DNA of 64,000 bases from Actinomycetota bacterium (GTDB lineage: Bacteria > Actinomycetota > UBA4738 > HRBIN12), in NCBI GenBank assembly GCA_021325015.1, contig JAJPHY010000054.1, positions 8,523-72,522 of the forward strand. The letters run 5' to 3'. The notes under the pieces were generated by a model that did not search any database, had not been told where the DNA came from, and was given only the letters and a program-made list of their open reading frames with translations. The translations under genes and the position numbers were made by a program. Positions 7,801 to 62,200 of the stretch are shown piece after piece (the stretch's first letter is position 1; each line of letters starts with the position of its first letter).

Positions 7801-10065
7801 TCAGGAGACGGCCGCCTCCTCCTTGGTCGTCTCGCGCGGGATCAGCAGCTCGCTCTTGCGGGCCTTCGAGATCCAGATCGCGGCCGCGAGGAGCACGGCC
7901 GCCGCCGCCGCGAACAGGAACCGCAGCGACCCGTCCCGAAACTCGACGACGAGCGGTGCGATCAACAGGGCGACGAGGTTCATGACCTTGATCATCGGGT
8001 TGAGCGCCGGACCGGCCGTGTCCTTGAAGGGGTCACCGACCGTATCGCCGATGACGGCGGCCCTGTGCTGCTCGCTGTTCTTGCCGCCGTAGTGGCCGGC
8101 CTCGACGTACTTCTTGGCGTTGTCCCAGGCCCCGCCGGAGTTCGACAGCATGACCGCCAGAAGCTGGCCGGTCAGGATCGCTCCCGCGAGGAACGCCCCG
8201 AGCGCCTCGGCCTTGAGGAGGAACCCCACGATCACCGGCGCCAGCACTGCGAGCAGGCCGGGCGTCATCAGCTCGCGGAGCGAGGTCTTCGTGCAGATGT
8301 CGACCACGCGCGCGTACTCGGGCTTCTCGGTGTAGTCCATGATTCCCGGGTGCTCGCGGAACTGGTTCCGCACCTCCACGACCACCTGCGAGGCGGCTCG
8401 GCCGACCGCGCGGATCGCGAGCGAGGAGAACAGGAACCCCACCGCGCCGCCGACGAGCAGCCCGACCAGCACGTCCGGCCGATCGACGGGGATCGGGAAC
8501 TCCTGGAGGTTGCCCTTGCCGAGCGCCTTCAGCACGGCGTCGGCGAACGACCCGAACAGCGAGGTCGCGGCGATCACGGCGGTCGCGATCGCCATGCCTT
8601 TGGTGATGGCCTTGGTCGAGTTCCCGATGGCGTCGAGGCCCGTGAGGATCTCCGCCGGACGCCCCTCGAACTCGCCGGACATCTCGGCGATGCCCTGCGC
8701 GTTGTCGGAGACCGGTCCGTACGTGTCCATCGACACGATGACGCCCACGGTCGTGAGCATCCCCATCCCGGTGAGCGAGATGAAGTACAGGCGCTCGAAG
8801 TTGTTGTTGCCGAGCAGGTACGCTCCGGTCACGGCGGCCGCGATCACCAGGATCGCCCACACCGTCGACTCGAGCCCGACCGAGAAGCCCGACAGGATCG
8901 TCGTCGCCGGGCCCGTCTGGGTGGCCTCGGCGATCTCGCGCACCGGCTTGTACTTGGTGTCGGTGAAGTACTGCGTGAGGATCTGGATGACCGAGGCGAG
9001 GATCAGTCCGAACAGCACGGCGACCGCCGGCCGGTAGTCCTTCATGTACCAACCGGCGATCACGAAGACGGCCGCCGCCGAGAGACCGGCCGACACGAAG
9101 AACCCGCGGTTGATCGACTTCATCCCGTGCTCGTCCTCGCTCCGGGGCGAGACCGCAAGGATGCCGACGATCGACGTGATCACGCCGACGGCGCGGACGA
9201 ACAGCGGGAACATCACGCCGCCGATCGCGCCGACCTGCGAGCCGGCGAACGCGGACGCGCCGAGGATCAGCGAGGCGACGAGCGTGACCTCGTAGGACTC
9301 GAACAGGTCGGCCGCCATCCCGGCGCAGTCGCCGACGTTGTCGCCCACGTTGTCGGCGATCACGGCCGCGTTGCGCGGGTCGTCCTCGGGGATCCCCTTC
9401 TCCACCTTGCCGACGAGGTCGGCCCCGACGTCGGCCGCCTTGGTGAAGATCCCGCCGCCCACCCGCATGAACATCGCGAGGAGCGCCCCGCCGAACCCGA
9501 AGCCGACGAGCACGTCGGTCGCGTCGGTCTTGTACACGATCAGGATCACGGTGGCCCCGAGAAGCCCCAGCCCGACGGTGAACATCCCCGCCACCCCGCC
9601 GGCGCGGAAGGCCAGCCGCATCGCGCGCCGCAGGCCCGATTCCCGCGCCGCATCGGCCACCCGGACGTTCGCGCGCACGGCCAGCCACATGCCCGTGAAC
9701 CCGGTGATCCCGGAGAAGCCCGCGCCCAGGATGAAGGCGATCGAGCGCCCGAACCGGATGAACAGGTCGCCGTGCACGGCGCCCTCGGGCACCGGCAGCA
9801 GGAAGAAGATCGCCACCGTGAGGATGACCAGGAACACACCCACCGTGGTGAACTGCCGCCGCAGGTAGGCGCTCGCCCCCTCCTGGATCGCCCGCGCGAT
9901 CTCCTTCATCTTGTCCGTGCCCTGGGGCGCGGCGAGCACCTCGCGTACCAGGTAGTAGGCGAAGAGCAGCGCGATCAGCGAGATGCCCAGGATGATCCAG
10001 AGCGCCCTGTCTTCGAACGAGCCGAACACCGCCTTGATCGGCCCGCCCTCGGCGGCCAGGTACAT
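7801..10065 (-). CDS. hppA: Membrane-bound H+-translocating inorganic pyrophosphatase (V-PPase), probably the K+-independent type
   Basis: MYLAAEGGPIKAVFGS...ADNVGDNVGDCAGMAADLFESYEV...DAIGNSTKAITKG, where the Lys in the GNxxKA motif marks the K+-independent type. ATG 10065 is preceded by GAGGAGG. ORF 7801..10725 carries a spurious ~220 aa N-terminal extension. Confidence 0.9.
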   Translation of the reverse strand: MYLAAEGGPIKAVFGSFEDRALWIILGISLIALLFAYYLVREVLAAPQGTDKMKEIARAIQEGASAYLRRQFTTVGVFLVILTVAIFFLLPVPEGAVHGDLFIRFGRSIAFILGAGFSGITGFTGMWLAVRANVRVADAARESGLRRAMRLAFRAGGVAGMFTVGLGLLGATVILIVYKTDATDVLVGFGFGGALLAMFMRVGGGIFTKAADVGADLVGKVEKGIPEDDPRNAAVIADNVGDNVGDCAGMAADLFESYEVTLVASLILGASAFAGSQVGAIGGVMFPLFVRAVGVITSIVGILAVSPRSEDEHGMKSINRGFFVSAGLSAAAVFVIAGWYMKDYRPAVAVLFGLILASVIQILTQYFTDTKYKPVREIAEATQTGPATTILSGFSVGLESTVWAILVIAAAVTGAYLLGNNNFERLYFISLTGMGMLTTVGVIVSMDTYGPVSDNAQGIAEMSGEFEGRPAEILTGLDAIGNSTKAITKGMAIATAVIAATSLFGSFADAVLKALGKGNLQEFPIPVDRPDVLVGLLVGGAVGFLFSSLAIRAVGRAASQVVVEVRNQFREHPGIMDYTEKPEYARVVDICTKTSLRELMTPGLLAVLAPVIVGFLLKAEALGAFLAGAILTGQLLAVMLSNSGGAWDNAKKYVEAGHYGGKNSEQHRAAVIGDTVGDPFKDTAGPALNPMIKVMNLVALLIAPLVVEFRDGSLRFLFAAAAAVLLAAAIWISKARKSELLIPRETTKEEAAVS

Positions 10066-10268
10066 GGAGGTCCCCTCCTCGGATTGTTGGTGAAGAAGCC
10101 TTCTATCCTGCGGAAACCCCGGGATTATAGGTGGAAGCCCTCGCCGCCGACCCCGGTCGAACGGAGGGCGTTTCCGGGGGTCCAACGCGGGGTGCCGCGT
10201 GCGGGGCATCCGGGCCGCGGCCGGCGTGCGGAGGGGGCGGGTGCGGACGCTCGCTCGTGTCGCAAGGG

Positions 10269-12026
10269 TCACGTGAGCGGCCCGACGACCGCGCCGAGCT
10301 CGCGGTCGAGGTCCTCCAGCCCGGCACGGAGGGCGTGCCCCGCGGCGGCGACCTCCTCCGCGTGCTCCGCGCTTCGCTCCCGCTCCTCCTGCGCGCGACG
10401 AACGCCCGCGCGGAGGCTCTCGACCGTGCTCGAAAGACGGTCCACGAGCTCGCGCTCGAGCGCGCGCACGCTCTGGTCCAAGCGCGTGACGAAGTCGTAG
10501 CGGAGCCGACCCATGTGCTTGTCGACCAGCCGTGGGATCGCCTCCATCACGTCCCGCTCCACGAGCTTGCGGGCCACCTTCCTCGGGAGGTACCGCCGCA
10601 GGTCGGGAAGGAGCGACTCCAGAATGGTCGGGACCTCGAAGAAGGAGTAGGAGAACTCGGTCCTCCGCGAGAGCTCGACGCGGGCCACCCCGGTCTCGAG
10701 GCGGATCCCGAGGATGTCGCCGCACACGCGGACGGTCTCCTCCGCGATCTGCTCGGCCTCCTGGACGAACCGGGCGGTCGCCTTCCGGAACGCCTCGGCC
10801 ACCCGCCGATCCTCGGCCCCTCGCCAGCGGTCGACGTCGGCGCGCAGCCGGGCCCGCACGAGCTCGTCCAGCTCGGAGCCCATCGTTCGGACCTCCTCCG
10901 CCCGGTCCAGGAACTCGCGGGCCACCCGACGGAGCTGATCCTCCTCGCGCCGTCGCAGCGCCTCGAGGTCGGCCTCGATCGTCGCGACCAGCCGGTCGCG
11001 CTCCTTCCGCACGAGCGCCCGTACGTCGTCCTGGCGCTCGGCCGCGCGGGCGAAGACCCGCTCCATCTCCTCGACGCGGCGGGCGAGGTCCTCCTGCGGC
11101 AAGGCCGCCGCCCGCTCCTCCACGTCGATCGAGTTCCGGAGGTCGGCGATCAGCCGCCGCGCGCGCTCGGCGACCGACTCCAGGATCGTGCCTCCCTTCT
11201 CGCGGAGCAGGAACGCCCGGAAGTCGCGCTCGAACGCTGGGAGCCCTGAGTCCTCCAGCGCCGTCGGGTCGGCTTCAAGCTTGGCGCGCAGCGCGTTCCG
11301 GGCGCTCACCGGGTACAGGCGAACCTCGTGGCCCACGGCATCGGCGATCACGCCTCGGGTGAACTCGATCGCCTCCTCGCGATCGGACTCGGACAGATAG
11401 TCGACCTTGTTCAGGACGAAGAACATCCGGGCCGCCTCCTCCCGCACCTCCCGGAGGAACGCCCGCTCGGCGTCGGAGATCGGCGGATCGGCCGTCGTGA
11501 GGAAGATCGCGGCGTCGGCCTCAGGCACGAACGCCCGGGCCGCCTCGGTGTTGTGGGCGTAGACGCTCCCCACGCCCGGCGTGTCGACCAGGAACACGCC
11601 GTCGCGGAGCTCCTCGGCCGGGTAGTGGAGGACGGCGCGCTCCACGCCCCGGCGGTTCTCGGGGTTCCCACGCTCCGTGACGAAGGCGGCGAGCTCGTCG
11701 ACACCGATCGGCTCGACCCGGCCGCCCGTACGCACCACCTCCGCGCGGACCTCATCGCCCCAGGTCACCGCCGTGACGACCGAGGTGAGCGGGACGACGG
11801 CGGAGGGCAGGACCTCCGCGCCGAGCAGCGCGTTGACGAACGTGGTCTTTCCCCGCTTGAACTCGCCGACCACCACCACGTTGAAGCGTTCCTCGGCGAG
11901 CTTGTTCGACAGCGCTCGGCAGGCCTCCGCCACTCCGTGCCCGTTGCGCCGCTCGGCGAGCTCGGCGAGTCGAGCGAGGAGCGCGGTGAGGCGGTCGCGG
12001 CCCTCCGCGTACGTCCGGTCCCCCAT
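10269..12026 (-). CDS. Bacterial dynamin-like GTPase (BDLP, IniA/IniC-like)
   Basis: P-loop VVGEFKRGKTTFVNALLG, switch motif DTPGVGS and NKVD, followed by a long coiled-coil stalk region. The SD AGGAG lies 5 nt before the ATG. Confidence 0.8.
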   Translation of the reverse strand: MGDRTYAEGRDRLTALLARLAELAERRNGHGVAEACRALSNKLAEERFNVVVVGEFKRGKTTFVNALLGAEVLPSAVVPLTSVVTAVTWGDEVRAEVVRTGGRVEPIGVDELAAFVTERGNPENRRGVERAVLHYPAEELRDGVFLVDTPGVGSVYAHNTEAARAFVPEADAAIFLTTADPPISDAERAFLREVREEAARMFFVLNKVDYLSESDREEAIEFTRGVIADAVGHEVRLYPVSARNALRAKLEADPTALEDSGLPAFERDFRAFLLREKGGTILESVAERARRLIADLRNSIDVEERAAALPQEDLARRVEEMERVFARAAERQDDVRALVRKERDRLVATIEADLEALRRREEDQLRRVAREFLDRAEEVRTMGSELDELVRARLRADVDRWRGAEDRRVAEAFRKATARFVQEAEQIAEETVRVCGDILGIRLETGVARVELSRRTEFSYSFFEVPTILESLLPDLRRYLPRKVARKLVERDVMEAIPRLVDKHMGRLRYDFVTRLDQSVRALERELVDRLSSTVESLRAGVRRAQEERERSAEHAEEVAAAGHALRAGLEDLDRELGAVVGPLT

Positions 12027-12031
12027 CGAGC

Positions 12032-12058
12032 GCTCCTACCCCCGCCATCGGTAGGAGC
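12032..12058. promoter_or_regulatory. Palindrome GCTCCTACC-N9-GGTAGGAGC, 5 nt upstream of the dynamin-like gene start and containing its SD
   Basis: Read directly from the sequence. A near-identical copy at 12195..12221 abuts the ATG of the divergent gene. Confidence 0.45.
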
Positions 12059-12104
12059 CATCAGCCCGGAGCGGGCGGTCGGCGGGCCCCATCGCCTGTT
12101 GTGG

Positions 12105-12132
12105 AGTATAGGCATCGGTCCCTCCTATACTG
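12105..12132. promoter_or_regulatory. Inverted repeat AGTATAGG-N12-CCTATACT in the centre of the divergent promoter
   Basis: Perfect 8-bp arms read from the sequence. The element is AT-rich and -10-like (TATAGG / TATACT). Confidence 0.35.
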
Positions 12133-12194
12133 CGTCGGGCGATTCGTTCGCCCGAGGCGATGGAGCTCGCCGAACCGCTCGACGTGAGCTGATA

Positions 12195-12221
12195 GCTCCT
12201 ACCCGTCGGGGAGGTAGGGGC
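12195..12221. promoter_or_regulatory. Palindrome GCTCCTACC-N9-GGTAGGGGC directly abutting ATG 12222 and containing the SD
   Basis: Read directly from the sequence. It is a twin of the element at 12032..12058. Confidence 0.45.
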
Positions 12222-12665
12222 ATGGAGCGGAAGAACGACACCGCCGGGCGGCTCGAGGACCTCGTCCTCACCTTGCGCGACACCGAGGTTCCGGCGGAGA
12301 CTCACCCGGTGCACATGCCCGACGACGCGAGCCCCGCCGATCCGGCCGAAGCTCGCTTCCTGCTGTACGTCGGCCTGTTCGACGCGCTGGCGGACCGAGT
12401 CCTGTCCGAGGCTCCCTCCGAGGAGGAGGGCGAGGTCCATCTTCGGCGCGCGCTGGCCGCCGCCATGAGCGCCGACTCCGTCCTGAAGTTCGAGCGACAC
12501 GAGCGCCAGACCCGTGCCGACCAGAACGAGCTCATGGCGCGGATGCGGTCGCGAGAGATCCAGATGACCGAGCGCTGGATGCTCCCTCGGCTGCGCGAGG
12601 ACATCGACGCCTACCGTCGCAGAATCGAGGGCCTTCGTCGCGCTCTGCTGGAGGAGGCGGAATGA
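12222..12665 (+). CDS. Hypothetical protein (147 aa, acidic, predicted helical)
   Basis: ATG has an upstream GGAGG. The composition looks coding. The stop overlaps the next start (ATGA). Confidence 0.55.
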   Translation: MERKNDTAGRLEDLVLTLRDTEVPAETHPVHMPDDASPADPAEARFLLYVGLFDALADRVLSEAPSEEEGEVHLRRALAAAMSADSVLKFERHERQTRADQNELMARMRSREIQMTERWMLPRLREDIDAYRRRIEGLRRALLEEAE

Positions 12666-13192
12666 CCGCCGGAGTCGAGATCCTCGCCGCCGACTGGGCC
12701 GCGCTCGTGCCGACCGGCCGGCTGGAGCCGGACGAGGTCCGCGGCCTCCTCGCGCGCGGCCGCGCGATCGCGGCGGCCGCTCCCGCCGGGGCGATGCCCG
12801 AGCGTCTCTCGCGGCCGGAGCGCCTCGAGCGGCTCCGCCGGTCCCTCGCGGTCGCGGCGGCCCGGGCGGCCGTTCACCGCTTCGAGCTCGTCAGGCAGCG
12901 CGAGCGCTTCGAGCGCTCGGAGCGCGACGAGGTCGAGACCTACGAGCGCCATCTCGAGCTCCACAAGGACGTGGTGCCTCCGCTCAAGCTCGAGGCCCGG
13001 GCCCTGCGCGCCGAGGTGCGGAGCCTGGAGGCGGAAGCGCGCGCACGCGGCATCGACGTCGACGCCATCCAGCCCGCGATCGACTGGCGGAACACGCTCG
13101 CCGTCGACGGCTACGAGGCTCCGAAGTACGAGACGCCCGAGAGCCGCAAGCGGGCCGCCGTCGAGTTCTTTCGTCGGGTGGGCAAACGGTGA
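12662..13192 (+). CDS. Hypothetical coiled-coil protein (176 aa)
   Basis: Translationally coupled to the upstream gene. Charged heptad-like repeats (ERLERLRRSLAVAAARA...ELVRQRERFERSERDEVETYER). Confidence 0.55.
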   Translation: MTAGVEILAADWAALVPTGRLEPDEVRGLLARGRAIAAAAPAGAMPERLSRPERLERLRRSLAVAAARAAVHRFELVRQRERFERSERDEVETYERHLELHKDVVPPLKLEARALRAEVRSLEAEARARGIDVDAIQPAIDWRNTLAVDGYEAPKYETPESRKRAAVEFFRRVGKR

Positions 13193-13244: not shown

Positions 13245-13979
13245 GTGGTCGTAGCGCGCCGGGCTCGAGCGCTCCGAGACGAGGTCGGCTACCACGATCT
13301 CCTCGCCGACCTCCGCAAGCCCGGGTGCCCGGCCTGCCACGGGGGCCACCGCGCCGCGTGGCGCTACCTCGACGCACTGCTCTGGGAGTTCGTGAACGAT
13401 CCGGAGGTCCGCGCGCGGCTCCGCGCGTCCCTGGGGTTCTGCCGGGAGCACGCCCTGATGCTCCTGGCGGTCGCCTCCAACCGGTCCGCCGGCAGCGGCG
13501 TCGGTATCCTGTACGAGGACCTGCTCCGCCACGTTCGCGAGGAGCTGATCTCGGCCTCCCGGAGCCGGACGCGGAGCGCCAGCCGGAGAGGGCGGAGGTC
13601 GTCCGAGCGCCCCGTCCGCGGGCGGTGCCCCGCGTGCGAGAGCGCAAACTTCGTGGCCACGAACTACGCCCGGATCCTTGCCACCGCACCCGAGGACTCC
13701 CCGCCGATCGAGGGCATCCGGCGGCCGATGCGGGGCATCTGTCTGCCGCACCTCGAGCTCGGTCTCCGGCACGCGCGGACCGAGGCCCAGGCGGCGCGCT
13801 TGGTCGAGCTCTACCTCCGCGGTGAGGAGGAGCTCCGCACCGACCTCACGGAGTTCGTTCGCAAGCAGGACTACCGGTTCCAGAGCGAGGGCCTGACCGA
13901 CGCCCAGGCGAGCTCGTGGATGCGGGCGGTGTACCGTCTCGTCGGCGAGCCCCTGCCCCGCAAGCCACCCGAGCGATGA
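13245..13979 (+). CDS. Hypothetical protein with two CxxC-type cysteine clusters (244 aa; putative Zn-binding)
   Basis: GTG start with GAGGAGG 6 nt upstream. Cysteine clusters GCPACH...FCREH and RCPACES...GICLPH. Confidence 0.55.
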   Translation: MVVARRARALRDEVGYHDLLADLRKPGCPACHGGHRAAWRYLDALLWEFVNDPEVRARLRASLGFCREHALMLLAVASNRSAGSGVGILYEDLLRHVREELISASRSRTRSASRRGRRSSERPVRGRCPACESANFVATNYARILATAPEDSPPIEGIRRPMRGICLPHLELGLRHARTEAQAARLVELYLRGEEELRTDLTEFVRKQDYRFQSEGLTDAQASSWMRAVYRLVGEPLPRKPPER

Positions 13980-15205
13980 GCGCCACGAAAACGAGCCGGC
14001 GCGAGTCGGTCCTGCGCAACCGCACGGTCGCCGGGATCGGCCTCGCGAGCTTCTTCTCCGACGCGGGCCACGAGATGGCGACGGCTGCCCTCCCCGCGTT
14101 CCTCACCTCGCTCGGGGCGCCGGCCGCCGCGCTCGGAGCCATCGAGGGCGTCGCCGACGCGGCCCTGTCGACCTCAAAGCTCGCGGGCGGCGTCGTCGCC
14201 GACCGCAGGGGCACCGACCGCCGGCGGGTGGCCGCCGCCGGCTACCTGGTCACGGGTCTCGGGTACGGCTCGTTTGCCTTCGCGGGGTCCTGGCCGGCCG
14301 TGGCCCTGGGCCGGGCGGTCGCCTGGGCCGCGCGCGGATTGCGGACGCCGGCCCGCGAGGCGCTCTTGGCCGAGGCCGTCCCTCCCGAGTACCTGGGCCG
14401 CGCCTTCGGCATCGAGCGCGCTGGGGACTCCCTCGGCGCGATCGCCGGACCGCTCGTCGCCGCCGCCCTCCTGTCGACGATCGGCTACCGGCACCTGTTC
14501 TGGATCAGCTTCTTCCCAGCCCTCGCGGCCGCGCTGTCGGTGCGATTCCTCGCCCGCGAGGTCCCGCGGGCGCGAGACGTCGCCCATCACGTGGGGATGA
14601 GCATCCGGGAGCTCGCGACCGCGCCGGGCCTGTTCCGATCGCTGCTCGCCGGGGTCGGGCTGTACGGGCTCGGCAACTTCTCCGCCACTCTGCTGATCCT
14701 TCGCGCAACCCAGATCCTGTCCTTTGAGGGCCGGAGCGCCGCGTCGGCGGCCGCGACGGCCGTGCTGCTCTACACGGCGCACAACGCGGCGAACGCGTTC
14801 GCCGCCTACCCGGCCGGAGCCCTCGCCGACCGGATCGGTCGCCGGGTGGTCCTCGTGATGGGCGTGGCGTTGTTCGCCCTCGCCTGCGTGGCCTTCGCGT
14901 TCTCCCCCTCGAGCCTGCCGATCCTCGCCGCGCTGTTCGTGGCGATCGGGGCCTCAACCGCGCTGGTCGAGACCGCGGAGGGGAGCCACGCCGCCGAGGT
15001 CCTCCCGATCGCGCTGCGTGGCAGGGGATACGGGGTCGTCGGGCTCGTCGACGGGGTAGGCGATCTCGTCTCGAGCCTCGTCGTCGGCGTCCTGTGGACC
15101 GTGGCCTCGCCGGCATGGGGGTTCGCGTACGCGGCGCTGCTCTCGATGCTCGGCGCGCTCGTGCTGATCCCCGGCTGCCTCACCGCCCGCCGGCCGAGCG
15201 CCTGA
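13976..15205 (+). CDS. MFS transporter
   Basis: Twelve predicted TM segments. Contains MFS motif A-like GRAVAWAARGLRTPAREALLAEAVP. The ATG at 13976 overlaps the upstream stop (ATGA). Confidence 0.8.
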   Translation: MSATKTSRRESVLRNRTVAGIGLASFFSDAGHEMATAALPAFLTSLGAPAAALGAIEGVADAALSTSKLAGGVVADRRGTDRRRVAAAGYLVTGLGYGSFAFAGSWPAVALGRAVAWAARGLRTPAREALLAEAVPPEYLGRAFGIERAGDSLGAIAGPLVAAALLSTIGYRHLFWISFFPALAAALSVRFLAREVPRARDVAHHVGMSIRELATAPGLFRSLLAGVGLYGLGNFSATLLILRATQILSFEGRSAASAAATAVLLYTAHNAANAFAAYPAGALADRIGRRVVLVMGVALFALACVAFAFSPSSLPILAALFVAIGASTALVETAEGSHAAEVLPIALRGRGYGVVGLVDGVGDLVSSLVVGVLWTVASPAWGFAYAALLSMLGALVLIPGCLTARRPSA

Positions 15206-16064
15206 CGAGCCGAACGAACTCGCGCGCGGCCGGCGAGAGCGGCGTACGGCGGAACACGAGCCCGATCGTCCGTCGGACCCGCGGCCGGAGCGGGGCGACG
15301 ACCGCGCCCCTGCGCGCCGCGTCGTGAGCCTGCGGGGCCGGCAGCAGCGTCACCCCGGCTCCGGCCAGCACGAGCGGCAGGATCGCCTCGCGCTCGTCGG
15401 TCTCGACCGCGACGAGGGCGCGGGCGCCCGCCGCCTCGAACGCCCGATCCAGCAGGCGGCGTGTCGACGTCCCGGGAGGGCCGGTCACGATCGGAAGGTC
15501 CCGCAGTCTCGCGACCGTGATCCGCCCCGAAGGCGGGGGCTCGAAGCCGGGCGGACAGACCGCCAGGAGCTCCTGGACGAGGAACGGCTCGGCGATCAGG
15601 TCCTCGTCCTCGACCGGCACCTCGGAGAGCCCGACCTCGGCTCGACCCGAGCGCACGAGCACGGCGACGGATCGGCCGGCCTCGGGCTGGAGGACACGGA
15701 CCGACACCCCAGGAAACTCGCGGCGGAAGGCCCCGACGAGCGGGGCGAGGGGATCCGCCGCGAGCGTTGGAAGCGCGGCCAGGTCCAGGCGTCCGCTCTC
15801 CAGCCCGGCGACCGCCGCGGCGGCCGCGCGCGCGTTCTGCACGTCCCGGACGATCCCGCGCGCGAACTCGAGGAACGCCTCGCCCGCCGAGGTGGGGATC
15901 ACCGAGCGCCCGAGCCGGTGGAACAGCTCGACCCCGAGCTCCCGCTCGAGGCTCCGAACGCCCTGCGACACCGAGGGCTGGGAGACATAGAGGGCCTCGG
16001 CCGCCCGAGAGAAGCCGCCGTGGTCGGCGACGGCGATCGCGTAGTCGATGAGCCTGAGTTCCAT
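15180..16064 (-). CDS. LysR-family transcriptional regulator
   Basis: N-terminal HTH reads MELRLIDYAIAVADHGGFSRAAEALYVSQPSVSQGVRSLE. The C-terminus is a substrate-binding domain. Confidence 0.85.
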   Translation of the reverse strand: MELRLIDYAIAVADHGGFSRAAEALYVSQPSVSQGVRSLERELGVELFHRLGRSVIPTSAGEAFLEFARGIVRDVQNARAAAAAVAGLESGRLDLAALPTLAADPLAPLVGAFRREFPGVSVRVLQPEAGRSVAVLVRSGRAEVGLSEVPVEDEDLIAEPFLVQELLAVCPPGFEPPPSGRITVARLRDLPIVTGPPGTSTRRLLDRAFEAAGARALVAVETDEREAILPLVLAGAGVTLLPAPQAHDAARRGAVVAPLRPRVRRTIGLVFRRTPLSPAAREFVRLVRRSAGGR

Positions 16065-16079
16065 AGGCTCAGCCTATCG

Positions 16080-16111
16080 TTTCGATGCGAAATCAGTGTT
16101 GAGCTTCTCAA
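16080..16111. promoter_or_regulatory. Two LTTR-type T-N11-A palindromes (TTTCGATGCGAAA and TTGAGCTTCTCAA) in the lysR/tauE divergent promoter
   Basis: Read directly from the sequence. The classic LysR box architecture is T-N11-A with 5-bp inverted arms. Confidence 0.45.
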
Positions 16112-16133
16112 CGATCGGTCGTGCGATGGAATC

Positions 16134-16919
16134 GTGGACGCGGGCAGATGCGCGGTCGTGGCCGCCGTGGCCGGGTGGACGTGGCTGTGGGTTGGGCTGA
16201 TCGGCCTCGCCGTCGGGTTCAGCGCGGGCCTGTTCGGCAAGGGCGGGTCGGCGGTCGCCACCCCTCTCCTGCACGCGGCGGGCGTTCCGGCCTTCGTCGC
16301 GGTGGCCGCCCCGCTGCCCGCCACCGTGCCCTCGACGCTCGCGGCGTCGTGGGCCTACGCCCGCGCGCACCTGGTGGACCGGCGGATCCTCGCCTGGAGC
16401 GCCGGGTTCGGGCTCCCGGCAACCGCCCTCGGGGCGCTCGCGACGCGATGGATCGACGGAGAGCTGCTGGTGCGCGCAAGCGAGCTGGTGGTGGCCGGGC
16501 TCGGGATCCGGTTCCTCCTGCGGCCGGGCTCGCCGACGGAGAAGGCGGCCGAGGCGCCGCCAGATCGCGCTCGGCTGGCGGTGGTCGCCACGCTCGTCGG
16601 GGTCGCCTCGGGACTGCTCGCGAACAGCGGCGGGTTCCTGCTCGCGCCGCTGTACCTGGGGGTGCTGCGCATGCCGATCAAGCGCGCCTTCGCCACCTCC
16701 CTCGCGGTGGCGAGCCTGCTCGCCGTTCCCGGCACGCTCGTCCACTGGGCCCTCGGCCATATCGACTGGGCGGTGGTCGCGGTGTTCGGGGCAAGCTCGA
16801 TCCCCTTCTCGTACCTGGGCGCGCGAGTCGCGCTCCGCTCCGATCCCGTTCGGCTGGAGCGGGTCTACGGGGCCGCCCTCACCTTGCTCGGACTCGGGCT
16901 GTTCGCACTGGGGCGCTGA
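16134..16919 (+). CDS. TauE/SafE (DUF81) family sulfite/anion exporter
   Basis: TM-rich protein with GLFGKGGSAVATPLL and ANSGGFLLAPLYLGVL. The start is uncertain (GTG 16134 or a downstream GTG). The ORF-track N-terminus from 15324 is antisense to lysR. Confidence 0.65.
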   Translation: MDAGRCAVVAAVAGWTWLWVGLIGLAVGFSAGLFGKGGSAVATPLLHAAGVPAFVAVAAPLPATVPSTLAASWAYARAHLVDRRILAWSAGFGLPATALGALATRWIDGELLVRASELVVAGLGIRFLLRPGSPTEKAAEAPPDRARLAVVATLVGVASGLLANSGGFLLAPLYLGVLRMPIKRAFATSLAVASLLAVPGTLVHWALGHIDWAVVAVFGASSIPFSYLGARVALRSDPVRLERVYGAALTLLGLGLFALGR

Positions 16920-16965
16920 GCCCCCGGCCGGCGGCGCCGGACGCCGCACAGCCCGCCACGTTCGG

Positions 16966-18309
16966 CTACGAGGGCGCCCGCTCCCGCGTGCGCAGCAGCA
17001 GGAAGCCCAGCAGCCCGGTGAGCACGGCCGCGAGCACGACCCCCACCCGAGCGGCGTCGAGCAGCGGGCCGGTGAGCGAGAGCTCGGCGACGAAGAGGGA
17101 CACGCTGAACGGCACCCCGGCTGCGGCCCCGACGCCGAGCACCCGCCTCCAGGTCAGGCCGGCCGGGAGACCGCTCGCGCCCAGTCGCACCGCCAGCCAC
17201 GACCCCAGGACGATCCCCAGGGGCTTGCCCAGAGCGCGGGCCAGCAGCATCCCCACCACCACCCGCTCGGAGCTCGTCGTGGCGAGCGCGTGCGGGACGA
17301 TCCGGACGCCGGCGTCGGCCAGGACGAACACCGGGAGGACCACGTAGCTCGTCCACGGGTGCAGGGCGGCCTCCAGCCTGGCGAGCGGCGAGACCGCGCC
17401 GCGGCAGAGCCTCGAGAGCTCGAGCCACTGCGCCGCGTCGGCATCGGGCGGAGAGGGATCGTCCACGGTCTCGTCGGCGATCCGGTGGGCCTCGCGGCTC
17501 ACCGCGCGGGGTCGGTGGAAGGGCACCGCCGGCGTGAGCAGCCCCATGGCGACGCCCGCGAGCGTCGGGGACACCCCCGAGCCGTGGAGCGCGAGCCACA
17601 TCGCGGTGCCGAGCGCGCCGTAGACGACGCTCGAGCGGACGTCGATCCGGCGGGCGACGAAGACCACGGCGCCGATGGCCAGCGCGAGGGCGACCGACCC
17701 CGCGGAGAGGCGGTGGGAATAGAAGATCGCCACGGCCGCGATCGTGCCCAGGTCGTCCGCGATCGCCAGCGACAGGACGAACACGCGGAGGGAGGAGGGC
17801 GCTCGAGGAAACGCGAGCGACAGAACGCCGAGCGCGAGCGCGATGTCGGTTGGCATCGCGGCGCCCCAGCCGTGCGAGGCGGGCGGGCTCGGGTTCGCCA
17901 CCAGGTACAGGAGCGCGGCGACGACCATCCCCCCGAGCGCCGCGGCCGCCGGCAGGATCGCCGCGCGCCGGCTCCGCAGCTCCCCCGTGAGAAGCTCCCG
18001 TTTGACCTCGAGCCCGGCCACGAGGAAGAACAGCGTCATCAGCCCGTCGCGGATCCAGCCCCGGAGGTCGTCCTCGACCCCCCACCGCCCGAGCCGAACG
18101 ACGAGGTGGCGGCTCCACAGATCCTCGTACGCCCCCCGGAGCGGCGAGTTGGCCCACACCAGGGCGACCGCGAGCGCGAGCAGCAGCAACAGGCCGCTCG
18201 CCACCTCGGTCTCGAGGAACGACTGCAACGGCCGGATCACCCGCCGGGGAATCGGCCGGTCCGAGCGCGACCACGGCAGGCGGAGCTCCTCGCCCCGTTC
18301 GACCTTCAC
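16966..18309 (-). CDS. nhaA: Na+/H+ antiporter NhaA (paralog 1)
   Basis: Contains LFFLVAGLEVKRELLTGELR, AIADDLGTIAAVAIFY and PWTSYVVLPVFVLADAGV. The GTG start at 18309 overlaps the stop of the upstream paralog (GTGA). Confidence 0.8.
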   Translation of the reverse strand: MKVERGEELRLPWSRSDRPIPRRVIRPLQSFLETEVASGLLLLLALAVALVWANSPLRGAYEDLWSRHLVVRLGRWGVEDDLRGWIRDGLMTLFFLVAGLEVKRELLTGELRSRRAAILPAAAALGGMVVAALLYLVANPSPPASHGWGAAMPTDIALALGVLSLAFPRAPSSLRVFVLSLAIADDLGTIAAVAIFYSHRLSAGSVALALAIGAVVFVARRIDVRSSVVYGALGTAMWLALHGSGVSPTLAGVAMGLLTPAVPFHRPRAVSREAHRIADETVDDPSPPDADAAQWLELSRLCRGAVSPLARLEAALHPWTSYVVLPVFVLADAGVRIVPHALATTSSERVVVGMLLARALGKPLGIVLGSWLAVRLGASGLPAGLTWRRVLGVGAAAGVPFSVSLFVAELSLTGPLLDAARVGVVLAAVLTGLLGFLLLRTRERAPS

Positions 18310-19736
18310 CGCCGGCGCTCCTCCTCGGCCGGCCGATCGCCCCGGAGGATCGCGTAGCCGAGGCCCCCCGCGACGACCGAGGCGAGCAGCACGCCGAGGC
18401 GGGCGTGCTCGAGCAGGGCGCCGCTCGGGAAGGCGAGCTCCGCGACGAAGATCGAGAGGGTGAAGCCGATCCCGGCCACGGACGCGGCCCCCGCGAGCCG
18501 CCTCCACGTGACGCCCTCGGGGAGGGTGCCCACGCCCGTCCGCACCGCCAGGGCCGAGGCGCCCAGGATGCCGACGAGCTTGCCCACAACCAGCCCCACC
18601 ACGACGCCGAGCGTGACGCGGCTCGCCGCGGCGCTTCGGAGGGCGTCCGCGGACAGGCGGACCCCGGCGTTCGCGAGCGCGAACAGCGGGACCACGACGA
18701 ACGTCGGCCACGGGTGGAGGGCGGACTCCAGGCGGGCGAGGGGCGACACGGCCTCGCGCGAGAGCCGTGCCAGTGAGAGCCACTGCGGCGCATCCGCATC
18801 CGGCGGCCATGGATCGTCCACCGTCTGATCGGCGACCCGGTGCGCCTCACGGCTCACGGCCGCCGGGCGCTGGAAGGGCGCCGCCGGCGTCAGCAGTCCC
18901 AGAACCACGCCGGCGATCGAGGCATGCACGCCGGACTCGAACACGGCCACCCAGAGCGCGACCCCGAGCGCCAGGTAGACCGCACCAGCCCGCACGTGGA
19001 TCCGGCGCAGGAGCACGGCGAGCGCGACCAGGGCGAGCGCGACCAGCAGCGGGACCCACGAGACCGATCCGGAGTCGACAACCGCGATCACCACGATCGC
19101 GCCGATGTCGTCGACGATCGCGAGGGTGAGCAGGAAGGGCTTCAGCCCCCCGGGGGCGCGACCCGCCGCGAGCGTCAGCCCGCCCAGGGCGAACGCGATA
19201 TCGGTCGCCATCGGGACGCCCCATCCGCGTCCGCCGTCCCCGCCGGCGTTCAGCGCCAGGTACAGGACGGCGGGCACCACCATCCCGCCGACCGCGGCCA
19301 CGACCGGCAGAGCGGCCGCGCGCATCGTGCGGAGCTCCCCGGTCAGGACCTCACGCTTGATCTCCAGTCCCACGACGAGGAAGAACAGCGCCATGAGGCC
19401 GTCGTTCACCCAGTGCCGCAGGTCCTGCGAGACGGGCACGCCCCCGGCTCTCAGGGTGAGCCTCGTGTGCCAGAGGGTTTCGTACGCGCCCCTCCAGGGC
19501 GAGTTCGCCCACCCGAGGGCGATCACGGCGGCGGCGAGGAGGACCAGGCCGCCTGCGGACTCGGTCCCCAGGAAGGCCTGCAGGGGCTGCACGATCCGGC
19601 GCGGGAGCGGGCGTTCCGAACGGGACCAGGGCGTGCGGATACCCTCGCCCAGCGCGGTCGGGTCGGTCGGTCGGTGCGCCACGCGGTCCTCGTCGCCGAC
19701 CAGGCTTCCCGGCGCACCCTCGATGGACGGCCTCAT
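18306..19736 (-). CDS. nhaA: Na+/H+ antiporter NhaA (paralog 2)
   Basis: Contains LFFLVVGLEIKREVLTGELR and AIVDDIGAIVVIAVV. ATG 19736 gives the start MRPSIEGAPG. The conserved leader PWSRSERPLPRRIVQPLQAFLGTE is shared with paralog 1. Confidence 0.75.
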   Translation of the reverse strand: MRPSIEGAPGSLVGDEDRVAHRPTDPTALGEGIRTPWSRSERPLPRRIVQPLQAFLGTESAGGLVLLAAAVIALGWANSPWRGAYETLWHTRLTLRAGGVPVSQDLRHWVNDGLMALFFLVVGLEIKREVLTGELRTMRAAALPVVAAVGGMVVPAVLYLALNAGGDGGRGWGVPMATDIAFALGGLTLAAGRAPGGLKPFLLTLAIVDDIGAIVVIAVVDSGSVSWVPLLVALALVALAVLLRRIHVRAGAVYLALGVALWVAVFESGVHASIAGVVLGLLTPAAPFQRPAAVSREAHRVADQTVDDPWPPDADAPQWLSLARLSREAVSPLARLESALHPWPTFVVVPLFALANAGVRLSADALRSAAASRVTLGVVVGLVVGKLVGILGASALAVRTGVGTLPEGVTWRRLAGAASVAGIGFTLSIFVAELAFPSGALLEHARLGVLLASVVAGGLGYAILRGDRPAEEERRR

Positions 19737-19773
19737 CGTACCCGATGTCCCCACACGTAGGATTGGAGACACC

Positions 19774-21453
19774 GTGAGACGCCCCCGATTCGGCCTGCCC
19801 GAACGCGACGCGCTGCACGCCGTCCGCCTCCGGTGGCAACGGACCGTGGTCCTGGCAGGCCTCACCGGCGTCCTCACCGGCCTTGGCGTGGCGTTGTTCG
19901 ACTGGCTGACCGCGAACGTGCTCCTCGATTCGGTCCGGAGGTCCCCGCGCTGGGCTCAGACGCTCGCGCCGGGGCTCGGCCTCCTCTTGGCGGCCCTCCT
20001 GCTGCGCTTCGCCGCTCGCGGCGCGAGTCCCTCCACCTCAGACGAGTACATCCGCTCCTTCCACGAACGCGGCGCCCGCCTGCCGCTCACCCCCGTGGTT
20101 GGGCGGATCCTGGCCTCGGTGGCCACGCTCGGGTCGGGAGGGGCGATGGGGTTCGAAGGCCCGTCCATCTACCTCGGCGCCGCTGTCGGCTCGCTTCTCC
20201 AGCGGAGGTTCTCGCGGTTCTTCTCGCGGGAGGACGCCAAGGTGCTCCTCGTGGCCGGCGCGGCCGCGGGCGTCTCGGCGATCTTCAAGGCGCCGGCGAC
20301 CGGCGCGCTCTTCGCGCTCGAGGTGCCGTTCCAGGAGGACCTCGCCGCGCGGGCGGCGCTTCCCGCGGTGGTCTCCTCGGCGGCCTCCTACCTGACGTTC
20401 GTGGCGTTTCACGGCACCACCCCGCTGTTCTCGGTGCGGGGCAATCCGGGATTCCAGCTGAACGATCTCGTGGGCGCCGCGCTGGTGGGCCTGCTCTGCG
20501 GGACCGGTGCCCGCGCGTTCGTCTGGCTGATCCGGCAGGCGAAGCGGGCCCAGCGATCCGTCCCGCCGCGGGTGGCCTGGCTGGTCGGCGGCGCGGCGCT
20601 GGCCGGAATCGGCGCGCTCGGGTTCGCCGCCTTCGACGGACCGCTCGCGCTCGGGCCCGGCTACCGGGCCGTCACCTGGCTCACCGATCCGACCCGCGAC
20701 CTCGGCCCGATCGCCCTGCTCCTCGGGTTGCGGGCGCTCGCCACGGCGTTCACGCTGGCCGGCGGGGGCGCCGGCGGGCTGTTCATCCCGCTCGTCGTGG
20801 AGGGCGCGATCCTCGGTCGCCTGATCGCCGGCGTGATCGGGCTGACCCGAACGACCCTGTTCCCGCTGGTGGGAGCCGCCGCCTTCCTCGGTGCCGGCTA
20901 CCGGACGCCGATCGCCGGCGTGATGTTCGTCGCCGAGTCCACCGGGAGGCCCGGGTTCGTGGTCCCCGCCCTGATCGCGACGGCCGTCGCCCAGCTGGTG
21001 ATGGGTCGCTCCTCGATCTCCCCGTATCAGATCCGCATGCGCGGGGGCCACGTCGAGGAGCGGCTGCGGATGCCGGTCTCGACCGTCCTCGTCCGCGACC
21101 CCTACACGGTGCCGCCGACCGCGACGGTCGAGGACCTGCTCCACCGCCACTTCGTACAGGCGCGCTCGCGCGCGATCCCGGTCGCTGAGGTGAACCGATA
21201 CCTCGGCATGGTGCGGCTCGAGGACGTCGACGAGGTGCCGCGGGAGGAGCGGGCCTCGCGGACGGTCGCCGAGGTCATGCGCCCCGACGTCCCGGCAGGC
21301 TCGAGCGGATGGACGCTCCGCCACGCGGTGGCCGCGATGGAGGCCGCCGACGTGGATCAGCTCGCGATCGTCGAGGGCGAGACCCTCGTGGGCGTGGTGA
21401 GCATGGACGACATCGTCAGCCTGGGCGAGATCCTGGAGGCGACCTCCGACTGA
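19774..21453 (+). CDS. ClC-family chloride channel / H+-Cl- exchanger with C-terminal CBS pair
   Basis: GSGGAMGFEGP selectivity motif and GYRTPIAGVMFVAE, with two C-terminal CBS domains. GTG 19774 has GGAG 6 nt upstream. An in-frame ATG at 19723 is the alternative. Confidence 0.8.
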   Translation: MRRPRFGLPERDALHAVRLRWQRTVVLAGLTGVLTGLGVALFDWLTANVLLDSVRRSPRWAQTLAPGLGLLLAALLLRFAARGASPSTSDEYIRSFHERGARLPLTPVVGRILASVATLGSGGAMGFEGPSIYLGAAVGSLLQRRFSRFFSREDAKVLLVAGAAAGVSAIFKAPATGALFALEVPFQEDLAARAALPAVVSSAASYLTFVAFHGTTPLFSVRGNPGFQLNDLVGAALVGLLCGTGARAFVWLIRQAKRAQRSVPPRVAWLVGGAALAGIGALGFAAFDGPLALGPGYRAVTWLTDPTRDLGPIALLLGLRALATAFTLAGGGAGGLFIPLVVEGAILGRLIAGVIGLTRTTLFPLVGAAAFLGAGYRTPIAGVMFVAESTGRPGFVVPALIATAVAQLVMGRSSISPYQIRMRGGHVEERLRMPVSTVLVRDPYTVPPTATVEDLLHRHFVQARSRAIPVAEVNRYLGMVRLEDVDEVPREERASRTVAEVMRPDVPAGSSGWTLRHAVAAMEAADVDQLAIVEGETLVGVVSMDDIVSLGEILEATSD

Positions 21454-32335: not shown

Positions 32336-34579
32336 CTAGCGGGGCGGCAAGCGCAGCCGGCGCTTGGAGTGCCCGTCGTGCGCCATCTTGAACACCTGGT
32401 AGGGCTCGCGCGGCTCGATCGGCGGCAGGCTGCCCTCCCCCTCGATGTCGAGACCGGGCAGGATCCGGTTCAGCCAGCCGGGGAGCCACCAGTTCGCGTG
32501 CCCGAGCAGCACCATCGTGGACGGCACGAGCACGATCCGCACCACCGTGGCGTCAACCAGCACCGCCACGGCGAGCCCGAACCCGATCATCTTCACGGTC
32601 GAGCTCTCGTTCAGCACGAACGAGAGGAACACCGCGATCATCACGAGCGCGGCGGAGGTGATCACCCGTGCCGTCGAGCGGATGCCGGTGGCGACGCTCT
32701 CGACCGTGTCGCGATCGACCAGGTACTCCTCGCGGACCCGGGAGAGCAGGAACACCTCGTAGTCCATCGACAGGCCGAACAGGATCGCGAACATCACCAT
32801 CGGGACGAACGAGACGATCGCGACGGGCCCGTCGAGCCCGAGCAGGCGATCACCCCAGCCCCACTGGAACGCCGCGACGACGGCGCCGTAGGCGGCGGCG
32901 ATCGACAGGCCGTTCACGATCGCCGCCTTGAGCGGCACGAGGACCGAGCGGAACACGAGCAGGAGCAGCACGAACGAGAGCGCCACCACGGTCGCGATCA
33001 ACGGGACCAGGCGTCCCGCGACGAGCGACTTGAGGTCCAGGAACAGGGCGGTCGCGCCCCCCACGAGGATCGTCGCTCCGGTCTCGCGCTCGATCGGCGG
33101 GAGCACCCGCTCGCGTAGCCGCTCGACCAGGTCGCCGGTCGCCGACGAGCCGCGGGCGGAGCGCGGGATCGCGGTGACCACGGCCGTCCGCCCATTCGCG
33201 CTCACCGCCGGCTGCGTCACGGCAGCCACGTCGGGATCGCTCCTCACCGCCGCCACGACCGCCTGCACCGCCGAGGCGTCCCCCGGAGTCGGCAGCTCCG
33301 CGACCAGCAGGAGCGGGCCGTTCACGCCGGGACCGAACCCCTCGGCGATGAGCGCGGCCGCCCGCGCCTGGGTCGAGTCCTTCCCGGCAACGCCGACGTC
33401 GAGGCCGAGGCGCATCGAGAACATCGGGACCATCAACGTTCCGACGACGGCGAGCCCCGCGACGAGCGAACGCCACGGGTGGGTGGCCACGACGCGCGCC
33501 CACCTCGCCCAGATCCCCTGATGGTCGGTCTGCGATCGCCGCCGCGGCCACCCGATCCCGAGCGCGTCGACGCGGCGGCCGAGGATCCCGAGCAGCGCCG
33601 GCAGCAGCGTGAGGGCCGCGGCGACGGCGACGAGCACCGCGATCGAGGCGACCGAGCCGATCAGGCCGACGAACGGGATGCCCGACACCCACAGCCCCCA
33701 GATCGCGACCATGACCGTGAACCCGGCGAACAGGACGGCCTGTCCGGCCGTCGCGACCGCGCGCCCGATCGCGTCGCCGACCGCTAAGCCGCGCCCGAGG
33801 CCTTCCCGGAAGCGCGTGACGATGAACAGCGAGTAATCGATGCCCACGCCGAGGCCGAGCATCGTGGCGAGCGTCGGGGTGAGCGTCGGGATGTCGCCGA
33901 CGTGCGAGATCAGCCAGACGATCGCGAGCGAGGTCCCGAGCCCGAGGAGCGCGGTCACGATCGGCAGCCCCATCGCCGTCAGCGATCCGAACGCGAGGAA
34001 CAGCACGACGACCGCCGCCGTGAGGCCGACGATCTCCGAGCCGCGGGGCTCCGGCAGGTGGGTGAACTCGACGAGCGGGCCTCCGAGCTCGACCTGGAGG
34101 CCGGCCGCGCGGGCCGGCGCCACGACGGCGCTCAGGCGATCGGCGGCGGCGCGTCCCAGCCGGGTGAGGCCCTCGTCGTAGTGGACGGTCGTGAACGCGA
34201 TCGTTCGATCCCGGGAGATCCCGGCCTCCCCGCCGGTCGCGGTCGGATCGTCCACCGCGACCACGTGCGGAAGACCGGCGACCCGCTGGAGAGTCCCCTC
34301 GATGGCCGCCATCGCCGCCGGAGTGGCGAGCGTGCCGGTTCGCGCGTGGAAGACGATCGTCGCGGTGGTGCCCGCCTGCTCGGGAAACCGGGCCCTCAAC
34401 ACGTCCAGGGCGCGTTCGGCCTCCGACCCTGGGATGCGGAAGTCGTCGACCAGCGCGGGCCCGGCGATGCGCCCGGCCGCGAACACGGCCCCGGCCACGA
34501 GGACCCAGACGCCCAGCACGAGGAACCGGCGGCGGGCGGCACCCCGCCCGAGGCGGTACAGACCGGTGGTCAGGCTCAT
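32336..34579 (-). CDS. MMPL-family (RND superfamily) membrane transporter
   Basis: Two 6-TM bundles with periplasmic loops. Contains DYSLFIVTRFREG and MDYEVFLLSRVREE. ATG 34579 has GAGGAG upstream. ORF 32336..35707 carries a spurious 375 aa N-terminus. Confidence 0.85.
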   Translation of the reverse strand: MSLTTGLYRLGRGAARRRFLVLGVWVLVAGAVFAAGRIAGPALVDDFRIPGSEAERALDVLRARFPEQAGTTATIVFHARTGTLATPAAMAAIEGTLQRVAGLPHVVAVDDPTATGGEAGISRDRTIAFTTVHYDEGLTRLGRAAADRLSAVVAPARAAGLQVELGGPLVEFTHLPEPRGSEIVGLTAAVVVLFLAFGSLTAMGLPIVTALLGLGTSLAIVWLISHVGDIPTLTPTLATMLGLGVGIDYSLFIVTRFREGLGRGLAVGDAIGRAVATAGQAVLFAGFTVMVAIWGLWVSGIPFVGLIGSVASIAVLVAVAAALTLLPALLGILGRRVDALGIGWPRRRSQTDHQGIWARWARVVATHPWRSLVAGLAVVGTLMVPMFSMRLGLDVGVAGKDSTQARAAALIAEGFGPGVNGPLLLVAELPTPGDASAVQAVVAAVRSDPDVAAVTQPAVSANGRTAVVTAIPRSARGSSATGDLVERLRERVLPPIERETGATILVGGATALFLDLKSLVAGRLVPLIATVVALSFVLLLLVFRSVLVPLKAAIVNGLSIAAAYGAVVAAFQWGWGDRLLGLDGPVAIVSFVPMVMFAILFGLSMDYEVFLLSRVREEYLVDRDTVESVATGIRSTARVITSAALVMIAVFLSFVLNESSTVKMIGFGLAVAVLVDATVVRIVLVPSTMVLLGHANWWLPGWLNRILPGLDIEGEGSLPPIEPREPYQVFKMAHDGHSKRRLRLPPR

Positions 34580-60910: not shown

Positions 60911-60931
60911 GCGGCGGGGCTCCGGCTCCGC

Positions 60932-62050: not shown

Positions 62051-62200
62051 ACCGCCTCCTGGCACCGACCGACCACGAGACCCTACCCGAAGGCCGGCCC
62101 GGACGCCTGCGGGCCCCACGAGCCCACCGAACGCGCCGACTCCGAGCACGCACCCAGGACGGCTCGGGTGCTCGATCCAGCGCCTGACTATGCTTCGCCC

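Follow-up and report, generated by a model that had tools for sequence, protein, structure and literature searches.

Divergent predicted fluoride riboswitches beside a dynamin-like GTPase gene in an Actinomycetota contig

How are two divergent gene sets controlled when each start codon sits at the foot of nearly the same palindrome? The question is raised by a 195-bp intergenic region (12027-12221) in a 64,000-nt stretch of DNA from an Actinomycetota bacterium (assembly GCA_021325015.1, contig JAJPHY010000054.1, positions 8,523 to 72,522), a stretch that we refer to as the window. On the minus strand the region precedes the gene for a dynamin-like GTPase, and on the plus strand it precedes the gene for p147, a protein of 147 amino acids (aa). 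An earlier note, made from the letters alone, described twin palindromes at 12032-12058 and 12195-12221; both their positions and their spacing from the ATG codons are borne out by the sequence. We conclude with high confidence that the region is a pair of divergent translational ON fluoride riboswitches, independent of each other and transcribed from back-to-back promoters. The earlier note overlooked that the 5' arm of each hairpin is the 3' tail of a fluoride aptamer, so that the hairpins are ligand-controlled expression platforms and neither stand alone nor serve as protein sites.

Fluoride aptamers and their overlapping hairpins

A scan of the whole window with Rfam returned exactly two matches above the gathering score, both to RF01734 (Fluoride riboswitch), for which that score is 34 bits. 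The plus-strand aptamer spans 12147-12208 (48.7 bits, E 2e-10), the minus-strand aptamer spans 12045-12105 (47.2 bits, E 5.8e-10), and each match is full-length (1-64/64). The two point away from each other, in agreement with the earlier description of a divergent control region. A weak match to the aptamer model at 33939-33977 (12.8 bits, E 0.58) is due to chance.

Both copies have the architecture of the class. P1, which is GGCG/CGCC in both, pairs 12156-12159 with 12168-12171 on the plus strand and 12096-12093 with 12084-12081 on the minus strand. P2 pairs 12177-12180 with 12186-12189 (plus) and 12076-12073 with 12067-12064 (minus). A pseudoknot of six pairs joins the P1 loop to the 3' tail: 12162-12167 (GGAGCU) with 12194-12199 (AGCUCC) in the plus copy, and 12090-12085 (GGGGCC) with 12059-12054 (GGCUCC) in the minus copy. 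The window copies therefore differ by compensating substitutions. In the consensus alignment, both helices and the blocks GGCGAUGG, CUGAU and CUCCUAC are all present in both copies. The conserved 3' tail, (A/G)GCUCCUAC, is in each case the 5' arm of the palindrome.

As DNA, the minus-side palindrome reads GCTCCTACC (12032-12040)-N9-GGTAGGAGC (12050-12058), a perfect 9-bp inverted repeat that ends, on the minus strand, 5 nt from the ATG (12026-12024) of a 585-aa open reading frame (ORF). The plus-side palindrome reads GCTCCTACC (12195-12203)-N9-GGTAGGGGC (12213-12221) and directly adjoins the ATG at 12222. The earlier note claimed a 9-bp stem with the Shine-Dalgarno (SD) sequence in its 3' arm on both sides. 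Both stems and both SD positions stand, with the refinement that the plus copy forms eight Watson-Crick pairs and one U.G pair (+ strand). The combination GCTCCTACC-N5-15-GGTAGG occurs at only these two sites in 64 kb (0.00 expected from 100 shuffles); a search for further occurrences, which had been proposed, found none elsewhere in the window.

As RNA, each hairpin begins within its aptamer. In the minus hairpin, the 5' arm (12058-12050) is the aptamer tail GCUCCUACC, the loop covers 12049-12041, and the 3' arm (12040-12032) is GGUAGGAGC; the SD sequence GGAG lies at 12036-12033, ahead of the AUG at 12026-12024. In the plus hairpin (12195-12221), the aptamer tail forms the 5' arm (12195-12203), the 3' arm (12213-12221) is GGUAGGGGC, and the SD sequence GGAGG lies at 12210-12214, with the AUG at 12222 adjoining the stem. 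The 3' arm consensus, GGUAGGRGC, carries the SD sequence in both hairpins.

The hairpins are stable. Folding energies are -15.7 kcal/mol (z -2.4) for the plus hairpin and -16.1 kcal/mol (z -4.1) for the minus hairpin, and the plus hairpin reaches only -11.5 kcal/mol when the antisense strand is folded. Pseudoknot-free folding of both leaders, a check suggested by the earlier note, placed the tail in the 9-bp hairpin in each minimum free energy (MFE) fold. The pseudoknot helix, treated as a plain duplex, is worth -8.7/-9.5 kcal/mol. Since the 3' strand of the pseudoknot and the 5' arm of the hairpin share five nucleotides (GCUCC), the two structures are mutually exclusive. When GCUCC was blocked, the residual stem contributed only -4.7 (plus) or -3.3 (minus) kcal/mol.

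Conservation and mode of control

We analyzed 80 loci encoding relatives of the dynamin-like protein, drawn from contigs representing one genome per species. Eight aptamers were used to build the covariance model with which these loci were searched. In 43 of the 80 loci, an aptamer on the gene's own strand precedes the dynamin-like gene by no more than 400 nt; for the 74 loci whose upstream sequence is long enough, the count is 39. At least one aptamer occurs somewhere in the locus in 52 of the 80. The association between aptamer and gene is conserved: aptamer-bearing dynamin-like loci span more than 10 phyla. When 13 of the loci were checked against the Rfam model itself, the upstream aptamer was confirmed in 12. 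In a set of 85 distinct aptamers from the related loci, pairing reaches 98.8% in P1 and the pseudoknot, although the pseudoknot formed no part of the search and alignment model; none of 500 shuffles reached the observed values. Double changes were found in seven of ten pairs (three of four in P1, four of six in the pseudoknot).

The competing hairpin is conserved as well. A hairpin anchored in the aptamer tail follows 44 of the 45 aptamers upstream of dynamin-family genes. About 23 of these hairpins are terminators (Planctomycetota, Bacteroidota, Bacillota and others) and about 18 contain an SD sequence (mainly Actinomycetota). Among 11 orthologous platforms of the SD type, the 9-bp stem is 99% paired, compared with 39-57% in slid controls. 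Two of its pairs show double changes, UA to CG and CG to UA (L036, L008), and seven cells of the alignment hold G.U combinations that pair only in the sense RNA. The geometry of an SD sequence in the 3' arm with a nearby AUG is kept in L002-L005, L009, L014, L082 and L085. In L008 the stem is kept by a CUUCUACC/GGUAGAAG double change and the SD sequence is weakened. An AUGAG follows the SD-type hairpin in L007 (4854-4887) and L008 (183-217), 140-200 nt upstream of the estimated dynamin-like start; it may mark a short leader ORF, or the true start may lie further upstream than the tblastn estimate.

These structures suggest how the switches would work. Two back-to-back -10 boxes would fire transcripts that start at or just before each aptamer. 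Five of the six tail nucleotides in the pseudoknot (GCUCC) also make up the start of the 9-bp SD hairpin, as its first five nucleotides. At low fluoride, the tail would pair with the SD arm and block translation initiation. Fluoride, bound as an F-/Mg2+ cluster, would lock the pseudoknot and withhold the tail; the remaining 4-bp stem would then be too weak to hold, the SD sequence would be exposed, and translation would begin. The minus switch would turn on the dynamin-like GTPase, possibly with read-through into the gene for an H+-pyrophosphatase, and the plus switch would turn on p147, p176, a DUF6062 protein and an MFS transporter.

The earlier note left it open whether the hairpins block translation or bind a protein. 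The first alternative agrees with our analysis: both hairpins lie in predicted 5' untranslated regions (UTRs), both bury an SD sequence, the AUG is 0-5 nt away, no U-tract follows, and covariation preserves the stem. A terminator scan found no U-run or terminator-like site at either window hairpin (the downstream sequences are AUGGAGCG and GCUCGAUG), and because neither hairpin precedes a U-run, we propose that the platform acts on ribosome access and not on termination.

The same aptamers could instead act through hairpins that are mainly terminators or attenuators, either as terminators poor in U or through polarity after failed translation. High-GC Actinomycetota use terminators without U-tails. 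In other phyla, the tail-anchored hairpin of roughly half the orthologous loci is followed by a U-run, which makes it a classic terminator, and two actinomycetotal loci lean the same way: L006 uses a terminator, and L002 has a U-run plus an adjacent AUG. The window hairpins differ from these in that no U-run follows either of them, and the combination of a GC-rich hairpin with a U-run that defines an intrinsic terminator is absent from both. Moreover, sequestration of the SD sequence predicts the conserved placement of that sequence in the arm with the AUG 0-5 nt away, and termination does not require it. We therefore consider control by termination unlikely.

The promoters bear on a second alternative, in which the twin palindromes, the central repeat or both are operators of a dimeric transcription factor, possibly as a second layer over the riboswitches. 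The earlier note read an AT-rich inverted repeat between the palindromes as part of a highly symmetric control region. The repeat is present, AGTATAGG (12105-12112)-N11-CCTATACT (12124-12131), with a spacer of 11 nt where 12 had been given. It forms a perfect 8-bp inverted repeat, as an operator might. Each half is also a -10-like box: CCTATACT at 12105-12112 on the minus strand (TATACT at 12110-12105) lies 8 nt upstream of P1, and its counterpart at 12124-12131 on the plus strand (TATACT at 12126-12131) lies 24 nt upstream of P1. The centres of the boxes are 21 bp apart, so that each occupies the expected -35 region of the other.

Orthologous promoters separate these readings. A single CCTATACT, with no inverted partner, lies 8-16 nt upstream of P1 in the unidirectional actinomycetotal loci L002, L004, L009, L082 and L085 (before p147). 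The same position holds TATACT in L005, TATAAT in L006 and CATAAT in L014. One member of the divergent aptamer pair of L085 is served by CCTATACT and its partner by GGTAGAAT; together these boxes form no inverted repeat. Because unidirectional orthologs have a single box at the same position and the L085 twin lacks the symmetry, the most fitting reading of the central repeat is a pair of independent, outward-facing -10 boxes and not one operator or one symmetric element; joint conservation of both half-sites was not found in orthologous promoters. The distance from box to P1 varies between 8 and 24 nt, as for a promoter element. The motif CCTATAMT occurs three times in 64 kb, always at this locus, against 0.08 expected. 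Two copies make up the central repeat, and the third, CCTATAAT (10131-10124, minus strand), stands without a partner upstream of the H+-pyrophosphatase gene (ATG 10066-10064). All three near-consensus -10 boxes of the window belong to the fluoride-linked cluster.

Two further features would suit an operator. Eight instances in different species conserve the whole 8-mer CCTATACT, two bases more than a -10 hexamer, and a gene for a LysR-type regulator (15180-16064) lies 3 kb away. For the palindromes at the ribosome-binding sites, we rejected protein binding in view of the overlap with the aptamer tail and of G.U pairs, through which the plus copy and several orthologs keep the stem in sense RNA only; these pairs are mismatches in DNA and in the antisense strand. 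Taken together, we regard an operator for a dimeric factor as very unlikely. As a separate observation, at least five other species have the exact 8-mer CCTATACT in front of aptamers, a degree of conservation beyond the need of a -10 hexamer.

From the boxes we predict start sites at about 12137-12139 (plus) and about 12096-12099 (minus), which place both aptamers and both hairpins within 5' UTRs. Between the predicted plus start site and its aptamer lies a short leader hairpin, GGGCGA-UUCGU-UCGCCC (12137-12153, plus strand; 6 bp, -12.0 kcal/mol, z -3.7), found in the plus copy only. The plus leader also repeats GGCGAU, the P1 5' strand, and the MFE fold allows this repeat to pair with the P1 3' strand instead. 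The leader hairpin may be a cap that stabilizes the mRNA or a decoy that tunes sensitivity.

That the aptamers are decayed relics beside constitutive hairpins, as their atypical cargo might suggest, is scarcely credible: both copies exceed the gathering score by 13-15 bits and retain every conserved block, P1, P2 and pseudoknot pairing persist in both although the copies have diverged, and the pairing of aptamer and gene recurs in the 43 loci described above.

Several points count against a pair of translational ON switches. The OFF hairpin (about -16 kcal/mol) greatly exceeds the isolated pseudoknot helix (about -9) in stability, and the tail is only 9 nt from the SD arm. Switching must therefore draw on tertiary and ligand energy or take place within a brief interval during transcription; the decision is probably largely co-transcriptional, that is, kinetic. 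In the minus aptamer, the AAC junction of the Rfam consensus is one A short. A scan for sigma-70 -35/-10 consensus pairs found none, with -10-like boxes only and no -35 consensus. Start sites, fluoride binding and fluoride induction are all predictions from sequence, and neither operon begins with a recognised fluoride exporter.

Regulated genes and their relatives

The first gene of the minus unit (10269-12026) encodes the 585-aa protein, which the earlier note had already called dynamin-like. Pfam agrees (Dynamin_N, 93.8 bits against a cutoff of 27, E 1.6e-26), and the best PDB matches, over residues 20-393, are Nostoc BDLP (2J68, 1.2e-23) and IniA (6J72, 2.5e-14). Its translation contains the motifs G1 GEFKRGKTT, G3 DTPG and G4 NKVD. 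A GTPase domain with G1-G4 motifs, followed by a predicted helical stalk, marks it as a bacterial dynamin-like protein. Its resemblance to the anti-phage 'Dynamins' defence system (LeoA/LeoBC) is weak general homology (1e-16), and the partner genes of that system were not found. Downstream, after a gap of 200 nt in which no terminator was found, lies the gene for an H+-translocating pyrophosphatase (7801-10066, minus strand; Pfam H_PPase, 3.5e-254). Read-through from the minus unit into this gene is possible, and the gene also has its own box, CCTATAAT.

The plus unit begins with p147 (12222-12665), a charged helical protein, and p176 (12662-13192; 176 aa), whose start overlaps the p147 stop. 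Neither belongs to a family in Pfam, NCBIfam or PADLOC, and a comparison of the two as paralogs was not significant (E 0.59). Next come the gene for the DUF6062 protein (13245-13979), a helical protein that has two invariant CxxC...CxxH motifs, two predicted metal sites and no solved structural relative, and the gene for the MFS transporter (13976-15205; Pfam MFS_1, 3.5e-41). The MFS gene ends the unit, and its ATG at 13976 overlaps the DUF6062 stop; the order is the same in L082 and L085.

Genes for ion homeostasis are frequent nearby. H+-pyrophosphatase and NhaA genes adjoin the two riboswitch units, and the intervals 15180-21450 and 60911-63064 are rich in such genes (LysR, TauE, two NhaA-type Na+/H+ antiporters, Na/Ca exchangers, TrkA domains and CLC). 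No aptamer precedes any gene of these two intervals. Given its canonical GKEGP motif, of the chloride type and not CLC-F, and its distance of 49 kb, the CLC gene (60911-63064) was rejected as a member of the unit. The window ORFs that were scanned yielded no CrcB.

Related loci place the two halves of the window in one cluster, and DUF6062 and MFS genes are the usual companions of the dynamin-like gene. In L004, L005, L014 and L082, one aptamer precedes a same-strand series in which the dynamin-like gene is followed by the plus-unit genes, and all four contain p147 homologs downstream of the dynamin-like gene. The order in L082 is dyn-p142-p178-His_Phos_1-DUF6062-MFS-TauE. In L085, p147-p176-DUF6062-MFS-LysR-TauE-NhaA matches the window, and p147 stands behind its own cassette of CCTATACT, aptamer and SD hairpin. 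These arrangements indicate that the window is a rearranged form of a conserved cluster under predicted fluoride control, in which each half has its own switch.

The remaining aptamers of the related loci stand before Na+/H+ exchangers (four), DUF6062 (four), enolase (two), MutS domain V (two) and CrcB (two), as well as H+-pyrophosphatase, MFS and DUF190 genes; further MutS-like, enolase and histidine-phosphatase genes occur in L082 and L085. DUF6062 aside, these neighbours are largely recognised fluoride genes (PMC2864571; PMC7266159; PMC11139923). Such classic company strengthens both the riboswitch assignment and the proposed membership of the dynamin-like and DUF6062 proteins in the same response.

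The twin layout recurs, with divergent aptamer pairs in four other loci. They lie between HisPhos-enolase and MutS-MutS (L085, 995-1169), between enolase and dynamin-like genes (L082, 4614-4982), between MFS and dynamin-like genes (L034, 4583-4919), and before a 538-aa ORF (9255-10868, minus strand) and a 97-aa ORF (11238-11528, plus strand) (L021, 10940-11198). Some actinomycetotal loci contain three aptamers in about 5 kb and form fluoride islands. In L009 (8307-10100), the closest relative in the genome collection, a second aptamer precedes a MutS-like gene (GPNQGGKTTF) that seems frameshifted, probably through a long-read assembly error. The window gene order reappears in the cultured Desulfofundulus thermobenzoicus DSM 14055 (L077, 4811-9058), where an aptamer, a dynamin-like gene, a second aptamer and an H+-pyrophosphatase gene follow one another; a third, weak aptamer-like match precedes a 428-aa gene at 10102-11385. 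In Brocadia-type Planctomycetota, a 66-aa ORF of conserved length lies between aptamer and dynamin-like gene (L039, 2577-2774; L044, 4557-4754; L047, 4263-4460).

Significance and comparison with known systems

The RNA elements themselves are ordinary members of a well-studied class, and to our knowledge the SD-sequestering platform has already been described. What they offer directly is two natural, compact (about 75-nt) predicted fluoride-ON translational switches from a high-GC organism. Riboswitch cargo is the main guide to the biology of fluoride toxicity, so the wider value lies in the cargo flagged here: a widely conserved module of dynamin-like GTPase, DUF6062 and MFS proteins that is predicted to be induced by fluoride.

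A 2024 review counts among fluoride genes the exporters, Na+/H+ antiporters, pyrophosphatase, HAD phosphatases, enolase, formate hydrogen lyase and chorismate mutase. The genes predicted to be under direct control in the window are absent from the published gene lists consulted (PMC11139923). Our literature search found no paper containing both 'fluoride riboswitch' and 'dynamin', none tying bacterial dynamins to fluoride biology, and none mentioning DUF6062. The original gene-association table (Baker et al. 2012) lay outside that search, so the dynamin-fluoride link is only provisionally unreported.

We tentatively suggest, at somewhat less than even likelihood, that this dynamin-like GTPase subfamily is a widespread and unrecognised arm of the fluoride response, switched by riboswitches in more than 10 phyla and usually accompanied by DUF6062 and MFS proteins (in Actinomycetota also by p147 and p176). 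If so, it would point to a role in membrane maintenance or in transport, or to a GTPase step sensitive to fluoride for which cells must compensate; both possibilities fall outside current models built on exporters, enolase, pyrophosphatase and pH homeostasis. Because D. thermobenzoicus DSM 14055 is a cultured strain, the predicted fluoride induction of a membrane-remodelling GTPase is directly testable.

We compared the window elements with known fluoride riboswitches. Examples of the crcB motif (RF01734) include those of Bacillus cereus crcB and Thermotoga petrophila (PMC8752731; PMC2864571; PMC7266159). In the B. cereus version, which controls a terminator, the ligand locks a pseudoknotted, docked aptamer and thereby prevents the downstream hairpin (PMC8752731). 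The window elements share with this archetype P1, P2, the pseudoknot between P1 loop and 3' tail, the GGCGAUGG...CUGAUnnCUCCUAC blocks and an ON logic that withholds the tail. Whereas the studied archetype uses an intrinsic terminator, the window hairpins hide the SD sequence, adjoin or nearly adjoin the start codon and lack a U-run, and their cargo is not exporters, enolase or other usual genes.

Translational control has a counterpart within the class. Baker et al. 2012 reportedly described fluoride riboswitches in Pseudomonas syringae that precede eriC-F/CLC-F and control translation. As in those switches, the aptamer tail, in which CUCC is an intrinsic anti-SD sequence, sequesters the ribosome-binding site. 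The window differs in its cargo and in having two units back to back on overlapping promoters. Two aptamers of one class within 200 bp also recall tandem riboswitches and loci with several riboswitches of a single class, but those of the window lie on opposite strands and serve separate divergent operons; they do not share one mRNA and are not cooperative.

The predicted cargo invites comparison with stress-induced dynamin-like proteins such as Nostoc BDLP, Mycobacterium IniA and Bacillus DynA. The window protein, known here from sequence, is only distantly related to BDLP and IniA (E 1e-23 to 1e-14). It resembles this group in combining a GTPase domain with a helical region and in being expressed, as predicted here, under chemical stress only. 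Its induction would differ in kind, since it is predicted to depend on an RNA sensor of fluoride and not on protein regulators.
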